From positions 831-64,830 of the forward strand of contig CAJUKB010000006.1 of the NCBI GenBank assembly GCA_910587325.1: a DNA stretch of 64,000 nt. The letters run 5' to 3'. How positions within the stretch are numbered: position 1 is the first letter of the stretch; each line of letters starts with the position of its first letter. Both the position numbers and the translations under genes were made by a program. The notes beneath the pieces are model-generated. The model was not told where the DNA came from. It made no database searches and saw only the letters and a program-made list of their open reading frames with translations. Shown here piece by piece: positions 3,378 through 52,338 of this stretch. This DNA comes from an uncultured Bacilli bacterium (GTDB lineage: Bacteria; Bacillota_I; Bacilli_A; RF39; UBA660).

Positions 3378-3839
3378 GTGAAGAAAATGCAAAAAAGTAC
3401 AATTGCAAGAATCATAACGATATTATTAGATATTATTTTTATAGGAGGAGTAATCGTAACATATTTTATACCAACCCTTTATGATATTTTTAAAGTTCCA
3501 AATATCAGTTCTTTCCAAAATCACACTTTTTTATATAAACTTGCTTTTTATCTTTGTTATTTCACATTTTTAGGAATTATTTTTTTCTTAACCAAAGTAT
3601 TCCATTTAGTCTATAATGGAAGTCCTTTCAAAAAAGAACTTGTTTTATTTCTTAAAGGTATTGCTGTATTATTTATGCTTTTAACCATTATTAACTTTAT
3701 TAAATTTATATTTATACCTAGTATTTTATCTATTGTTGTTATCGTGATTACGTTTATTGCAAGTTTAAGTTTTTATGTTTTAAGTCAAGTATTCAAAACG
3801 GCGATTGCTTATAAACATGAAATAGATTTCACAATTTAG
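3378..3839 (+). CDS. Small multi-pass membrane protein (DUF2975-like partner of a YozG-type regulator)
   Basis: 153 aa with 4 predicted TM helices. Sits immediately upstream of a 74-aa HTH gene; this pair is a conserved two-gene arrangement. Confidence 0.5.
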   Translation: MKKMQKSTIARIITILLDIIFIGGVIVTYFIPTLYDIFKVPNISSFQNHTFLYKLAFYLCYFTFLGIIFFLTKVFHLVYNGSPFKKELVLFLKGIAVLFMLLTIINFIKFIFIPSILSIVVIVITFIASLSFYVLSQVFKTAIAYKHEIDFTI

Positions 3840-46914: not shown

Positions 46915-47298
46915 CTAACATTTTTGTGTGCTAGAGTTTTTTACTAAATTTCTTTTGGGATTATTATCTATAGTTTGTCCTAATTTTTCGTTTATTATTT
47001 TTTCAAAATATAAATATTCTTCTGTTTGATTCATATTACTACCTGATTCTTTTATTGCTTCACATCTTCTTTTTATAAATTCTAAATAATCATCAAAGTC
47101 TCCAAATTTATTATATTTACAATCTATAATATCATCTAAGATTTCGTAATTATAATAGGCAAAAAAGGCACACATTCTTAAATTATCCCTTGTACTTTGA
47201 TCTTTATTGCCAAATTCAATAGCCCAAAAAATTTGGTTATCTATTTCTTTTAAAATTTGTCTTCTATTTTGTGATTGGCTTTTACTAAAACTTTCCAT
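46915..47298 (-). CDS. Hypothetical protein
   Basis: 127-aa ORF, no motifs. Confidence 0.4.
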   Translation of the reverse strand: MESFSKSQSQNRRQILKEIDNQIFWAIEFGNKDQSTRDNLRMCAFFAYYNYEILDDIIDCKYNKFGDFDDYLEFIKRRCEAIKESGSNMNQTEEYLYFEKIINEKLGQTIDNNPKRNLVKNSSTQKC

Positions 47299-47419
47299 AC
47301 CAGTTTCCTCTTTTCAAATTTAATTTATTTTAAAATAGATTTTTTTATTTTTCAACTTCTTTTTTCACATTTACCATATATTTTAAATATTTATCCATTA
47401 TTTATAAGCGAAAAGAAAT

Positions 47420-48220
47420 TTATTTTTTCAATTTCTTTATATATTCAATTGCAGGCATACTATGTTGAAAAAAGGGAAGTCCATATTGACTACATAATAT
47501 TTGTATTTTTTCTAACTCTCTAGTTACATCAACATATTGAACAGATAAATCATTTTCTAAACATTCCATCAATGGAGCTCGTTGATATTCATAAGTAGTG
47601 GGAAAAGTTTTTAATCTTTTTAATATAGAGTTATCCACAATAATGCCACTCGATAAAACTAAGGTTGTATAATCTTTGCATCTCTTTATAATTTCTAATG
47701 GTTCTTCAATTGAAATAAATTCATTTGGACATAGTGGTTTTATTGTTAAAAAAGTAATAATGTTTTTTAGGTAAACTTCCGATAAAAATTCCATTCTTTG
47801 ATAAGGTGTAGGTATTAAGGGATTATTTTCTAATTTTTGATAGGATTTCAAAGCAGGAATAGAAATACAAAAGAATAAATATTTTCCTTCTTCTTTCATT
47901 CTAGAATTAAGTTCAGCTAAACGATTTAATTCCTCTTGATTAAATATATTTCGAGTTGTCATTAATATATTACAATGATAAGCTTCAAAAATTTTTTCAG
48001 CTAATTCTAAGCCTTGGTTTGGTTCAAAAAAGTTTTCTTTATGTCCTGAAATATAAATAACATTAGGATTTTTTTCTTGTAAACTACTAACTATTTTTGG
48101 TATAGAATCTTCTCCTTTTATTTGGTAATTTGGATTAAACGTATAACAATGTAAGCAAGCATATGGGCACGTGCCTGAAAAGGAGGCAAACTCTCTTTTA
48201 TAAAGATTTTCTTTATTCAT
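47420..48220 (-). CDS. Radical SAM domain protein
   Basis: CxxxCxxC cluster CPYACLHC near the N-terminus. 266 aa. Confidence 0.55.
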   Translation of the reverse strand: MNKENLYKREFASFSGTCPYACLHCYTFNPNYQIKGEDSIPKIVSSLQEKNPNVIYISGHKENFFEPNQGLELAEKIFEAYHCNILMTTRNIFNQEELNRLAELNSRMKEEGKYLFFCISIPALKSYQKLENNPLIPTPYQRMEFLSEVYLKNIITFLTIKPLCPNEFISIEEPLEIIKRCKDYTTLVLSSGIIVDNSILKRLKTFPTTYEYQRAPLMECLENDLSVQYVDVTRELEKIQILCSQYGLPFFQHSMPAIEYIKKLKK

Positions 48221-48244
48221 ACCAAAACCCTTTCTTTATATTTT

Positions 48245-49252
48245 TTATTTGTTAACTATACCTTTACAAGGTTCATTATTAAATATTTGTATTAAATTTT
48301 CAATACACATTTTTTCAACTCTTTTTGTACCTTCTAATGCATTATGTCCAGTGTGAGGTGTTAAAATAAATTTTCCTGTTGGTAAAGTTAAAAGTTTTGC
48401 TTCTTCGGTTGTTAAATCAACAGGCTCTTGATAAAAGCCATCGAAAGCACATCCTGCAATTTGATTAGTTTTTAAACAATTATATAGAGCATTAGCATCT
48501 ACAATTTCCGCTCTTGCCGTATTAATAAAATAAGCACTTTTTTTCATTAAAGATAATTCATTTTCTCCAATTAAATTTTTGGTTTCAATATTTAAAGGTA
48601 AATGAAGAGATACAATATCAGAATTTCTAAATATTTCTTCTAAAGAAACTTTCCTCGCATTGTATTTGTTTGCGATTTCGGATTTGTCTTCTTTATCATA
48701 ATATAAAATTTCTGCATGAAAAGCATTATACATAATTTCAGCAAAATATGTTCCAATATGTCCTAGTCCAATTATTCCAATAACTTTATCTTTTAAGTCA
48801 AAAAATTTTTTTTCTTCCCATTTTCCATTTTTAGTTTCTTCATGATGTTGTAATAACTTTTGATTAAGAGTAAATATAAGTCCTAGAGTGAATTCTGCTA
48901 CAGAGTAAGAATTTACTTTTGGAGTATTTGCAACTATTTTCTCATATTTTTGAGCAACTTCAGTATCTATACATTTTGCATAGCCTATTCCAAAAAATTG
49001 AATTACTTTTAATTTTTCACATTTACTTAAAACTTCTTCCGTATATTTTTCTTCTCCATTTACAATAACGGCATCACAATCTTGCAATACTTCTATTAAT
49101 TTTTCTTGTGTAAGATTTGGAGAAGTTGGTATGATTTCTAAATTTTTTTCTTTTAATTTTTCTATTTTTTCTTCATTAAACGTACAGCCTGTAAATAAAA
49201 CTTTTATCATTCCTTTGCCTTCTTTCTTATTCATTTTAACATATATTTTCAA
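48245..49252 (-). CDS. D-isomer-specific 2-hydroxyacid dehydrogenase family (NAD-binding)
   Basis: Rossmann motif VIGIIGLGHIGTYFA. Conserved catalytic region ...TPHTGHNALE. Confidence 0.8.
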   Translation of the reverse strand: MKIYVKMNKKEGKGMIKVLFTGCTFNEEKIEKLKEKNLEIIPTSPNLTQEKLIEVLQDCDAVIVNGEEKYTEEVLSKCEKLKVIQFFGIGYAKCIDTEVAQKYEKIVANTPKVNSYSVAEFTLGLIFTLNQKLLQHHEETKNGKWEEKKFFDLKDKVIGIIGLGHIGTYFAEIMYNAFHAEILYYDKEDKSEIANKYNARKVSLEEIFRNSDIVSLHLPLNIETKNLIGENELSLMKKSAYFINTARAEIVDANALYNCLKTNQIAGCAFDGFYQEPVDLTTEEAKLLTLPTGKFILTPHTGHNALEGTKRVEKMCIENLIQIFNNEPCKGIVNK

Positions 49253-49267
49253 TACTTATCCACTTAT

Positions 49268-49420
49268 TTTGACATGTTTTGTCGAATTGCTTGTAATCTA
49301 TTTTTTTTACATTATAATAGCAACTCGTGTTACCGAATTAATATTGCTTACTTTCATTTCAAGTAGTACAGGGGGTATGAAAACAATGAAGGTTATGAAC
49401 AAAGAGTAATCTTTAAGTAA
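49268..49420 (+). repeat. Copy A of a ~150-bp promoter-leader-small-ORF unit (TTGACA-17-TGTAAT, leader, SD, truncated 10-codon ORF)
   Basis: Shares ATGTTTTGTCGAA(T/A)TG..., TATAATAGCAACTCGTGTTACC, and ...GGGG(G)T..TTATGAACAAAGA blocks with 50060-50245. Confidence 0.5.
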
Positions 49421-49483
49421 TAATAATTGTATTTGGTTGATTCAAAAAAAAGCATTATCTAATTTGATAACACTTTTTTTGTT

Positions 49484-49996
49484 TTATAAATTTAAACTTC
49501 TTTGTTGATTTTTAGTTTTATTTAATTTATTTTGAACATCAGTTAATTCATTTACTATATTTACTAAAATATCCAATTCACTTTGATTTAATTTAGTTAT
49601 AAAGATTTTTTCTATATTAGAATACTTATCAATAATATAATTTAACCAATTTCTAAATTTTTCTTCCATTTGGTTATCTAAATCTTGTTCTATTTCTTCT
49701 TCAGAGCTTTCTAAATATTCTAATAAACCCTCTGTTGTAGGAGTAGGTTCTCCATCAATTTCACAATTATGTAAATATCTTAAATAGGGGTCACTCAGTG
49801 TAATAAAAGCTTTTGTAGTAATTTCTAAGTCTTTTGGTTTATATTTCTTTTCTACTTTAATTAAAGATTGTTCTATTTTCATAAATTTGGAACAAAAAGC
49901 TATTTTTATTTTACTCATAGGTGAATTCATTGGTATTTCTAAATACTCCCAATAATTGATAAATTCTTGATTTTCATTATTTTTTTCCATATACAA
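49484..49996 (-). CDS. J-domain-like protein lacking the canonical HPD tripeptide
   Basis: N-terminus YWEYLEIP..NSP.SKIKIAF...KKYKPKD...AFITLSDPYLRYLH follows the DnaJ J-domain pattern (YYEILGV...IKKAY..KYHPD...LSDP.KR). HPD is replaced by KPKD. Acidic C-terminal half. Confidence 0.45.
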   Translation of the reverse strand: MYMEKNNENQEFINYWEYLEIPMNSPMSKIKIAFCSKFMKIEQSLIKVEKKYKPKDLEITTKAFITLSDPYLRYLHNCEIDGEPTPTTEGLLEYLESSEEEIEQDLDNQMEEKFRNWLNYIIDKYSNIEKIFITKLNQSELDILVNIVNELTDVQNKLNKTKNQQRSLNL

Positions 49997-50059
49997 AATC
50001 TCCTTAAGTTTGCTTTATATTACCTAATTAAGTTCAAAAAAGCAAGTACATTAATTTCT

Positions 50060-50245
50060 AATCATATTTTGGTATGTTTTGTCGAAATGATTGCAAATTA
50101 AATTTAAAACTATATAATAGCAACTCGTGTTACCAAAGAGTAGCGCCTTACTACTTTAAATTCTACAAGTACAAACATCAAGATTTTTTTAATCAGGGGG
50201 GTTTGGAAAGTAGGAGGTGAAGAAGTTATGAACAAAGAACATATG
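50060..50245 (+). repeat. Copy B of the promoter-leader unit, followed by a 28-codon hydrophobic ORF
   Basis: TTGGTA-17-TGCAAA promoter-like. Conserved leader blocks as in copy A. AGGAGGTG SD before ATG at 50228. Confidence 0.5.
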
Positions 50246-50313
50246 CAAAAAATTGTATACATTCTTTTAGTAATTATATTTATGTTAATTGTTGCATTGC
50301 TTCGACTAATATA
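50228..50313 (+). CDS. 28-aa hydrophobic peptide (MNKEHMQKIVYILLVIIFMLIVALLRLI); candidate small membrane toxin / leader peptide
   Basis: Strong SD. Single TM helix. Followed by CTTGGTAACAC (50397-50407), which can pair with CGTGTTACCAAG in the leader. Confidence 0.3.
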
Positions 50314-50451
50314 AAAAACAGACGATAACCAAACACCTAGATTATACTTGATATTCGGTATAGCGTCTATACAAACAAAATTGTAAGGCGTTATCTACTT
50401 GGTAACACTTACATTTATATTTTACTAAACATTAGCTTAATATACAATACA

Positions 50452-52338
50452 TTATTTATTATTTTTATCAATTTTAATAGTAATATGATAGATATCTTCT
50501 AAATCCGCTTCTTCGCATTCTACTACAAATCCACGTCTTTCTAAGTCAACTATTGTATCTCTTACTACATTAATTGCTGTTTTTAAATCACGTCCAGCTA
50601 GTTCTTCTTGTCTTTGTTGATAATCAGGTTCTAAAGTAACAATACTATCAAGAGGGTCTACTAAAGGTTCTTCGATAACAGGTTCTACTTCTTCTATAGT
50701 GTTGTTGATAATTGGAGTTTCAACAGGAGTACTTGCTTCTTCATCATCTTCATCACTATTAAAGAATATAGATTTAAAAGGTTTTAACTCTTCAGTTGTT
50801 GGTTCTTCCACAATTTGGTCGTTAGTTATTTCTACAATCGGTTCTTCTATAATAGAAGTATTTAAACTTTCTTCTTGTGGTGCTACTACTAGATTTGGTT
50901 CTGTAGCTTGTTCTTCAATAACAATAGGAGTTTCTGTAGAAATTGGTTCTATAATTGGGGATGTTACTTCTTGATTTTCTTCTATTACAGGAACATTATT
51001 CTCTTCTTTTTTTGGTTCTTCCATATAAATTGGTTCAATTAAAGATTCTAAAGAAATTTCTTCATTTACATTTTCAACTGGTGTAGTTTCTTCTATAGAA
51101 GTTGTTTTTTCATCTAGTGTACTTTCTTTTTCTGCTTCTACTTGCGGTTGTTCTAGAGTAGTTGGAATTACAGATTCTAAAATGGTAGAAGTTTTTTCTT
51201 GTGGTTCGACGATTTGTTCTGTTAAATTTGTTTCTTTTACTTCGGGATTCAATTCTTCTAGTAATTCTATAGTATCAAAATCATTGTTTGTTTCTTCTAC
51301 AATAGGTTTTACTTCTTCTATAATAGGAATTTCTGTCATGTTTTCTAAAGAAGGAGTAGTTGATTGTTCTTCTTTTTGGCTTTCCATTTCTTTTGATTCA
51401 TTTGTACTTTCTTCAATACTTGGTTCTAGAATAGGAGTAGAAGTGAAAGTATTTAAGATTTCCTCCGGCTCTATAACACTCATATTGGCTTGTTCATCTT
51501 CTAAAAAGTTAAAGAATTTATTAGGAGATTTTACAGGTTCTTTTGTTTCTTCTAGTGGTATTCCACCTTCAGGTATTAACATACTAGCAACATCATGAGG
51601 AGCACGTTCTACATGAATATCTTCTGCGTGTGTTACAATTTCATCTAAATTTGGATTGATGTTTACAAGAGGAATTCCTTCTTCTTCCTCTCCACCATTT
51701 TCTTGTAGTTTTTTAAGTTCTAAATCAAGTTGTCTTACGGTTAATCTTTCTTCCATAACACGTTTTAACCATTTCTTTTGGTCTTCATGAGATTCTAAAG
51801 TAAGAAGTGCTCTTGCATGTCTTTCACTAATTTTTTCGTTTAATAATGCTTCTTGTACTTCTTCATCTAAATTTAAAAGACGAAGTTTATTGGCAATAGA
51901 ACTTTGAGAAACTCCCATTTTATTTGCAAGTTGTTCTTGCGTTAAATAGCCTCTATCTAATAAATTTTTATAAGATTTTGCTTCTTCTATTGCGGTTAAA
52001 TTTCTTCTTTGAATATTTTCCACTAGAGCCACCTCTGCACTTTTATTATCATCAATATCGGAGATGATTACCGGCACTTTTGCAAGTCCTGCCATAGTAG
52101 ATGCTTTGTATCTTCTCTCACCTGCAATAATTTCGTATTTATCTCCTAATTGTCTTACTACAAGGGGTTGAATAATCCCATGTTGTTTAATTGATTCTGC
52201 AAGTTCATTGATTCCTTCTTCATTGAATGCAAGTCGTGGTTGAAAACGATTGGGAATAATATCCTCAATCGGTACTTCTAGAATATTTTTATCGATATTC
52301 ATACTAATCAGCCCCTTTAGCCTATTATTACTATACAT
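50452..52338 (-). CDS. ParB/Noc-family protein with a ~350-aa acidic Pro/Glu/Thr-rich disordered insertion
   Basis: N-terminal ParB domain (GERRYKA, HTH LTQEQLANKMGVSQSSIANKLRLL). Long repetitive EEP(I/V)VE region. Short C-terminal dimerisation-like segment. Directly downstream of rsmG with no parA between. Confidence 0.8.
   Translation of the reverse strand: MYSNNRLKGLISMNIDKNILEVPIEDIIPNRFQPRLAFNEEGINELAESIKQHGIIQPLVVRQLGDKYEIIAGERRYKASTMAGLAKVPVIISDIDDNKSAEVALVENIQRRNLTAIEEAKSYKNLLDRGYLTQEQLANKMGVSQSSIANKLRLLNLDEEVQEALLNEKISERHARALLTLESHEDQKKWLKRVMEERLTVRQLDLELKKLQENGGEEEEGIPLVNINPNLDEIVTHAEDIHVERAPHDVASMLIPEGGIPLEETKEPVKSPNKFFNFLEDEQANMSVIEPEEILNTFTSTPILEPSIEESTNESKEMESQKEEQSTTPSLENMTEIPIIEEVKPIVEETNNDFDTIELLEELNPEVKETNLTEQIVEPQEKTSTILESVIPTTLEQPQVEAEKESTLDEKTTSIEETTPVENVNEEISLESLIEPIYMEEPKKEENNVPVIEENQEVTSPIIEPISTETPIVIEEQATEPNLVVAPQEESLNTSIIEEPIVEITNDQIVEEPTTEELKPFKSIFFNSDEDDEEASTPVETPIINNTIEEVEPVIEEPLVDPLDSIVTLEPDYQQRQEELAGRDLKTAINVVRDTIVDLERRGFVVECEEADLEDIYHITIKIDKNNK

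Follow-up and report, generated by a model that had tools for sequence, protein, structure and literature searches.

The 64,000-nt stretch of DNA examined here (the window, i.e., the whole stretch analyzed) comes from an uncultured Bacilli bacterium. Two related transcription units on its plus strand adjoin the parB gene: unit A (49265-49481) and unit B (50065-50412). Unit B carries a small open reading frame (ORF) for a hydrophobic peptide, and unit A carries no conserved ORF. Here, we describe the organization of the two units, their conservation in relatives, and our leading, still tentative, reading that they constitute a new type I toxin-antitoxin-like family together with an ORF-less paralogue.

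The two units share a direct repeat of 73 nt (49265-49337 versus 50065-50137) with 79% identity. Within this repeat lies an exact 22-mer, TATAATAGCAACTCGTGTTACC, which is found at exactly two sites in the window and in none of 100 shuffles. The homology extends past the repeat, through a G-run and the block TTATGAACAAAGA to a 3′ arm. The duplication proposed in the initial annotation of this DNA is thereby confirmed, and the units are paralogues. Unit A corresponds to unit B minus the ORF interior, having retained the promoter, an upstream box, a closing helix, a hairpin (P2), and the terminator. The upstream box, a TTGNAA-16-TATAAT promoter, the leader, the G-run, and the 3′ arm are common to both units. 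The control regions, and the gene between the units, are positioned as follows.

49278-49286, plus strand: TTTGTCGAA, the upstream box of unit A, separated from the −35 box by 4 nt
49291-49318, plus strand: promoter of unit A, TTGTAA-16-TATAAT, a 10/12 match to the consensus, with a predicted start near 49325
49484-49996, minus strand: middle gene between the units, with 12 homologues among 5.8 billion proteins
50078-50086, plus strand: TTTGTCGAA, the upstream box of unit B, separated from the −35 box by 4 nt
50091-50118, plus strand: promoter of unit B, TTGCAA-16-TATAAT, from a consensus scan, with a predicted start near 50125

The initial annotation had also given both units a promoter, but with other hexamers. 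TTG(T/C)AA-16-TATAAT scores better and is better conserved; as the best promoter, it turns what had been called the conserved block TATAAT into the −10 box, and the former −10 box into the −35 box. The unit A promoter is kept in every A orthologue. The box TTTGTCGAA is invariant in 11 of 11 distinct promoter sequences collected, all relatives included, and its only sites in the window are those of the two units; it is probably the binding site of some regulator. All neighbors of A and B are on the minus strand, and both plus-strand units converge on them. Each is therefore a transcription unit in its own right rather than the leader of a downstream gene, in agreement with the earlier description of a small structured transcript. 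A minus-strand leader or riboswitch serving the neighboring genes was rejected, since those genes vary between genomes whereas the units and their plus-strand promoters are constant. The middle gene had been described as “J-like”, but Pfam finds no DnaJ signature in it, even at E ≤ 10.

For comparison, we assembled loci L001-L022 from the contigs of middle-gene homologues (12) and of graded ParB homologues, plus matches from DNA pattern scans of genomes and metagenomes. The scans, which are biased towards the pattern used, returned one match each: L011, a distant metagenome-assembled genome of an uncultured Bacilli bacterium from wild mouse, and L012. A single match per scan implies that the family is rare or that the promoter-leader region diverges fast. 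A search with a promoter-plus-leader profile (nhmmer) detected no additional copies, either in the window or in the 22 loci, i.e., only two copies in 64 kb and none further in ~130 kb of related loci. The evidence base is entirely computational and comprises about six lineages, with three full B sequences.

The feature common to both units is a long helix that joins the two ends of each RNA. In unit A, this closing helix has 23 bp (49327-49349 with 49450-49473); in unit B, it has 10+13 bp (50127-50151 with 50383-50408), with a duplex energy of −33.4 kcal/mol. Pairing between the leader and the 3′ end had been noticed previously; it is real and longer than claimed. The coordinates of its two 3′ segments had been given one base off, with GATAACAC lying at 49466-49473 and CTTGGTAACAC at 50398-50408. 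Of the U-runs said to follow the helix, that of unit A is clean (U7), while unit B has AUUUAUAUUUU instead. The closing helix is part of the minimum free energy (MFE) fold of all nine full elements (six copies of A and three of B, representing five or six lineages). When the arms of the eight distinct elements are aligned, 92% of cells pair, versus 33-43% with the partner slid by 1-3 columns. Double changes occur at five pairs, a number reached by 8 of 500 shuffles, and the covariation score is 0.222 versus 0.154, exceeded in 1 of 500 shuffles. This covariation lies between subtypes. The 3′ arm doubles as half of a local palindrome with a U-rich tail, a predicted bidirectional terminator, meaning that the arm has two alternative partners.

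Unit B combines this fold with a gene for a membrane peptide. Its RNA (50119-50425) has an MFE of −77.2 kcal/mol (z = −5.4), and its features are as follows.

50127-50151, plus strand: 5′ arm of the closing helix, pairing with 50383-50408
50154-50166, plus strand: leader segment CUUUA..UUCUAC, with predicted pairing to the Shine-Dalgarno (SD) region at 50210-50222
50196-50201, plus strand: G6 run, homologue of the G5 run of unit A by A/B homology
50212-50217, plus strand: SD sequence AGGAGG, 10 nt before the ATG
50228-50314, plus strand: ORF MNKEHMQKIVYILLVIIFMLIVALLRLI, 28 amino acids (aa) with one transmembrane segment, conserved in L019 and L011
50320-50368, unstranded: stem-loop SL2 in the 3′ untranslated region (UTR), with a pair changed in compensatory fashion from G-C to A-U in L017 and a repaired mismatch in L019
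50383-50412, unstranded: 3′ arm (50383-50408), also a local palindrome GUAAG..GUUAU-loop-GUAAC.CUUAC (z = −4.5), a predicted bidirectional terminator

The strong SD reported earlier for this copy does precede the 28-aa ORF. The peptide has a 17-residue hydrophobic core with a Kyte-Doolittle value of 3.5 and, as in type I toxins, is a small (<60 aa) hydrophobic membrane peptide with its own translation signals. Among the 11 SD-preceded short ORFs of the 64-kb window, it is the only one that combines a strong SD with strong hydrophobicity. Conservation of the ORF as a coding frame is supported by comparison with relatives. In L019, units A and B are arranged in tandem, and B shares 87% identity with its window counterpart (ParB there is 66% identical); the peptide is identical at 27 of 28 positions, the changes being a conservative K8R and two synonymous substitutions. 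For L011, BLAST aligns only 70 nt of promoter-leader with the window element, and the layout is the same: a 5′ arm, a G-run, a purine-rich ribosome site, a 29-aa ORF (MKQENYFLKVIVILLIVIILLLIIKETLI), and a complementary 3′ arm. The leader/SD pairing has predicted equivalents in both L019 and L011, and the SD lies in a helix in the folds of all three B RNAs. In truncated B copies, the ORF starts with MNK (L012) or MKKDF (L001). L014-L016 match the 3′ arm region at 100% identity, compared with just 81% for ParB.

The minus strand of unit B may carry an antisense gene, with the following predicted elements.

50419-50447, minus strand: predicted antisense promoter, TTGTAT (50447-50442), a 17-nt spacer, and TAAAAT (50424-50419), with conserved hexamers
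50316-50412, minus strand: predicted antisense RNA of ~97 nt, made up of SL1, SL2, and a U6 tract (fold z = −4.3)

The putative promoter lies just outside the B 3′ arm; its hexamers are constant and its spacer variable among the window, L014-L016, L019, and L017. The predicted RNA is complementary to the entire 3′ UTR and 3′ arm of B, and its U6 end falls just past the ORF stop codon, where the A6 that flanks SL2 (50313-50318) reads as U6 on the minus strand. The corresponding RNA of L019 has a fold z of −4.8. In L011, TTGAAA-17-TATACT stands in the corresponding position on the antisense strand, and only one other sequence in the region matches a promoter at 10/12; the predicted RNA is ~65 nt long, its terminator is the only terminator call in the region, and no parB lies upstream. 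In L017, the putative antisense promoter, both stem-loops (including the compensatory change of G-C to A-U), and the U-tract persist although the 5′ half of B is lost, as would be expected if an antitoxin outlived its toxin. A second minus-strand promoter, internal to the unit (TAGACG-17-TATAAT, 50369-50341), was rejected because its −35 box is unconserved in L019 and the promoter is absent in L011.

Unit A was initially taken to be a degenerate copy with an ORF cut to 10 codons. Its sequence conservation indicates instead that it is a selected non-coding RNA, with the following features.

49319-49481, plus strand: unit A RNA, ~160 nt, non-coding, with identity above that of flanking coding DNA and no conserved ORF
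49327-49349, plus strand: 5′ arm of the closing helix, with 49450-49473 as its partner in each of the six A MFE folds
49350-49393, plus strand: hairpin P2 (ACUUUCAUU / AAUGAAGGU), from RNAalifold, with 4 one-sided pair-preserving changes
49401-49414, plus strand: hairpin P3, AAAGA-GNRA-UCUUU, with loop GUAA in the window copy and GAAA in every other lineage
49432-49446, plus strand: hairpin P4, UUUGG-UUGAU-UCAAA, from the RNAalifold consensus
49450-49480, plus strand: 3′ arm (49450-49473) and U7 tract (49474-49480), from the fold (local hairpin z = −4.3)

Unit A is 95-96% identical between the window and L001, L002, and L004, where the gene for PBP1A is 87% identical. The equivalent values are 89% for L017 (PBP1A 84%, mnmG 81%, rsmG 76%) and 88% for L019 (PBP1A 84%, mnmG 82%, rsmG 76%). 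Divergence of the unit follows species divergence. It is more conserved than unit B, unpaired segments included. The residual 10-codon ORF is not conserved: three lineages lose the stop codon, and in L017 a frameshift yields MKQ followed by a stop, with the second ATG changed to ACG. The substitution that removes the stop codon turns a GUAA tetraloop into GAAA. In the RNAalifold consensus, four helices surround a multi-branch junction. The apical loop of P2 carries the G5 run (49371-49375), and this hairpin is homologous to the anti-SD/SD hairpin of B. All substitutions in the closing helix keep pairing except for four unpaired cells; four further unpaired cells are C·A and U·U mismatches already in the window copy. 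At the 3′ end, a local hairpin flanked by A8 and U7 is a predicted bidirectional terminator shared with the minus-strand gene that ends at 49484. L017 also keeps an intact unit A, even though its B no longer has a promoter, leader, SD, or start codon. Since unit A exceeds housekeeping genes in identity and keeps its helices while its ORF is unconserved, it is best described as a non-coding RNA under constraint and not as a copy in decay.

The module belongs to no described family. Rfam covariance models gave no match to the units at the gathering threshold or at E ≤ 10 in the window region, L011, L019, or L017. The peptides have no credible match in Pfam or NCBIfam, the best being DUF7248 (E = 0.04; 14 bits versus a cutoff of 27), and described type I families (e.g., Fst and RatA) gave no model match in Pfam, NCBIfam, or Rfam. 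A 57-aa, N-terminally extended gene call in L019 matches only itself in both protein libraries. No match was obtained by tblastn searches of plasmids and phages with the peptide, by BLASTN of B against plasmids or of A against phages, or by a viral pattern scan. Covariance models of known small RNAs closed by a terminal helix (6S RNA among other Rfam families) gave no match; A has a multi-branch junction in its interior, unlike a rod with a central bubble.

The architecture of unit B is nonetheless that of type I toxin mRNAs: a hydrophobic ORF, an SD within a leader helix, a 5′-3′ helix, and a predicted antisense RNA that overlaps the 3′ end. Determinants of type I systems include SD/anti-SD pairing and long-distance 5′-3′ interactions, and in Gram-positive bacteria the antisense RNAs of such systems sit on the 3′ side (PMC8594479). 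SR4, for example, acts at the 3′ end of bsrG (PMC3834814). Gram-positive antitoxins that overlap the 3′ end form a duplex with the toxin mRNA that leads to its decay or keeps translation off (PMC8594479, PMC3834814). Full-length hok and aapA1 mRNAs are closed by long-distance 5′-3′ interactions, with the SD in local structure (PMC8594479, PMC5416894, PMC6733600). Tandem repeats are mentioned as a further criterion for type I systems (PMC8594479). By predicted folding, the mRNA of unit B would likewise be arranged to limit translation, with the closing helix in 9 of 9 elements and the SD in a helix. Of the earlier suggestion of a type-I-toxin-like peptide or regulatory RNA with one degenerate copy, the conserved membrane-peptide ORF, the structured RNA, and the type I architecture stand, and the degenerate copy does not.

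The closest parallels are with the Bacillus subtilis pairs bsrG/SR4, txpA/RatA, bsrE/SR5, and yonT/SR6. Like these, unit B has a hydrophobic peptide ORF on a structured mRNA, and it would have a convergent antisense RNA of ~100 nt over the mRNA 3′ end with potential for a long perfect duplex. Unlike these, it has no similarity to them in peptide or RNA sequence, its predicted antisense RNA would target the 3′ strand of the 25-bp closing helix, and a conserved ORF-less sense paralogue adjoins the module. To our knowledge, an antisense target within a 5′-3′ closing helix is undescribed for bsrG/SR4-type systems. The Gram-negative systems hok/sok and aapA1/IsoA1 resemble unit B in that the mRNA ends are closed 5′-3′ and the SD is in local structure. 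However, their antisense RNAs lie in the 5′ portion of the transcript, and translation is switched on by 3′ trimming, whereas the predicted antisense RNA of B is at the 3′ end and in silico removal of the 3′ arm leaves the SD paired; they also belong to another phylum and share no homology with B. LDR/ldr-rdl, ibs-sib, and the hok pseudogenes provide cases of tandem or nearby paralogues in which the toxin ORF is often inactivated. The window resembles them in having nearby paralogous copies; unlike their decayed copies, unit A evolves more slowly than its housekeeping neighbors and keeps its RNA helices.

If the type I reading holds, B would act as follows. A sense RNA of ~290 nt, transcribed from near 50125, would encode the 28-aa single-pass membrane peptide and hold its ribosome-binding site inside the leader helix. 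A 5′-3′ helix of 23-25 bp would clamp the ends of this RNA, leaving the full-length form stable and poorly translated. A convergent minus-strand antisense RNA, running from ~50412 to ~50316 and perfectly complementary to the 3′ UTR and 3′ arm, would compete with the 5′ arm and displace it; the long duplex so formed would cause decay or silence translation. Unit A may regulate the module or mimic the B RNA. By inspection, ~20 nt of the predicted antisense RNA can pair with the 3′ arm of A, which makes a mimic or decoy role possible. This could be extended, doubtfully in our view, to a three-RNA system co-regulated through TTTGTCGAA, in which A is a mimic of the toxin mRNA whose 3′ arm binds the antitoxin and so sets the toxin threshold, or in which A controls B in trans in another way. 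Were that the case, selection on a look-alike of a toxin mRNA would be stronger than on the gene for the toxin.

In favor of the type I reading, the distribution of the units resembles that of a selfish element. The interval between parB and the gene for PBP1A (window positions 46915-50450), compared in the window, L001, L002, L004, L017, L019, L020, and L021, is hypervariable among close relatives, ranging from a 33-nt spacer to six genes. It includes an IS30-like transposase gene in L001 and NUDIX, AAA_28, and NT5C genes in L002 and L004. A and B occupy its parB-proximal edge. The element is decayed in L017 and absent from L020-L022; in L020 and L021, parB abuts the PBP gene. In addition, eight independent short-read contigs (L013-L016 at their 3′ ends, and L009, L010, L004, and L001 at one end) end inside unit B, in the 3′ arm or the leader. 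This suggests repeat-induced assembly breaks, such that further genomic copies may exist.

Several observations count against a type I system. First, of just three full B sequences, two are nearly identical. Second, the B peptide matches no toxin family in searches of family models, protein libraries, plasmids, and phages, and it is without the charged C-terminal tail usual in Gram-positive type I toxins. Third, the predicted occlusion of the SD does not distinguish B: its mean probability of being unpaired is 0.33 versus a median of ~0.5 for 21 ordinary genes, within whose range it falls, with five genes lower. Nor is the 3′ arm a switch for SD access in silico, since deleting or blocking it leaves the predicted SD pairing unchanged. 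Fourth, cofolding yields no favorable A-B heterodimer, the energy being equal to the sum of the monomers, and a role for A as a direct base-pairing antitoxin of B is thus unsupported. Lastly, the antisense −35 box is weak (TTGTAT, 3/6), the antisense z-scores are not independent evidence because they mirror those of the sense 3′ UTR, and in the window, L019, and L017 the antisense-strand hairpins could merely terminate parB.

This last point leads to the main rival, which we consider possible but a good deal less probable than a type I system: B would encode a harmless small membrane protein (e.g., a modulator of a membrane complex) on an mRNA that is just stable and structured, A would be a related small RNA, and no toxin-antitoxin pair would exist. 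On this reading, the minus-strand hairpins would be the parB terminator; parB reads into the region, and the palindrome and SL2-U6 would terminate it. The lack of a toxin-family match, the unexceptional SD occlusion, and the chromosomal locus with housekeeping surroundings, in both the window and L011, are consistent with a harmless microprotein. By contrast, the patchy spread, with decay in L017 and absence from L020-L022, is unexpected for a useful housekeeping microprotein. Two properties of the minus strand also argue against termination of parB as the whole explanation: L011 has an antisense promoter and terminator without parB upstream, and the minus-strand hexamers are constant over a variable spacer.

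It is unlikely, though not far-fetched, that both units are chiefly trans-acting regulatory RNAs, possibly dual-function, in which the G-run loop or other single strands bind targets or a protein and the peptide is secondary or unmade. The more conserved unit is A, which has no ORF and whose unpaired segments are conserved too, and the shared upstream box suggests co-regulation of A and B. Moreover, A, B, L011, and L012 all keep the G5/G6 run, a rarity in this genome: runs of at least five G occur at five plus-strand sites of the window (13342, 18909, 45954, 49371, and 50196) and at no minus-strand site, and two of the five are the homologous runs of A (49371) and B (50196). However, the plus strand of the window therefore has no CCCCC, i.e., no C-rich candidate targets, and a secondary or unmade peptide does not account for the layout of ORF, SD, and peptide kept in L011 despite DNA divergence, or for the L019 substitutions being synonymous or conservative.

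We regard it as very improbable that the units are mobile repeats resembling miniature inverted-repeat transposable elements, with the arms as terminal inverted repeats, or mere conserved bidirectional terminators or promoters for neighboring genes: the arms are indeed inverted repeats of roughly 24 bp, the locus is hypervariable with an IS30-like gene nearby in L001, and several contigs break inside unit B, but A/B homology runs ~60 nt past the 5′ arm and includes an oriented promoter, the window has two copies with no extras in ~130 kb of related loci, the divergence of A tracks that of species as for vertical descent, neighboring genes change between genomes while the units do not, and searches of plasmid, phage, and viral collections gave nothing similar.

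Confirmation of a type I system would add a toxin-antitoxin-like family from a poorly studied lineage of uncultured gut Bacilli. It would also combine two features that are usually separate, the 5′-3′ clamp of hok and aapA1 and the 3′-overlapping antisense RNA of Bacillus. Unit A would be a clear case from nature of a toxin-mRNA paralogue that is strongly selected despite the loss of its ORF, raising the question of whether “dead” copies in general are regulators. With RNAs of about 160 nt and 290 nt and an antisense RNA of ~100 nt, the module is a compact test case.

Some minor observations concern the surroundings of the units. The adjoining ParB (window 50452-52338, minus strand) has 628 aa, with an acidic low-complexity linker of ~400 residues after its helix-turn-helix domain, and its relatives keep this unusual length (540-640 aa). 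Directly upstream of the unit A promoter region is a DnaA-box-like sequence, TTATCCAC (49256-49263), which is kept in L001, L002, and L004; the unit A locus is ~13 kb from dnaA. In L011, a T-box leader (3460-3647, plus strand; 88 bits versus a gathering score of 93) is found near the B-type element, upstream of a CYTH-domain gene and tyrS.

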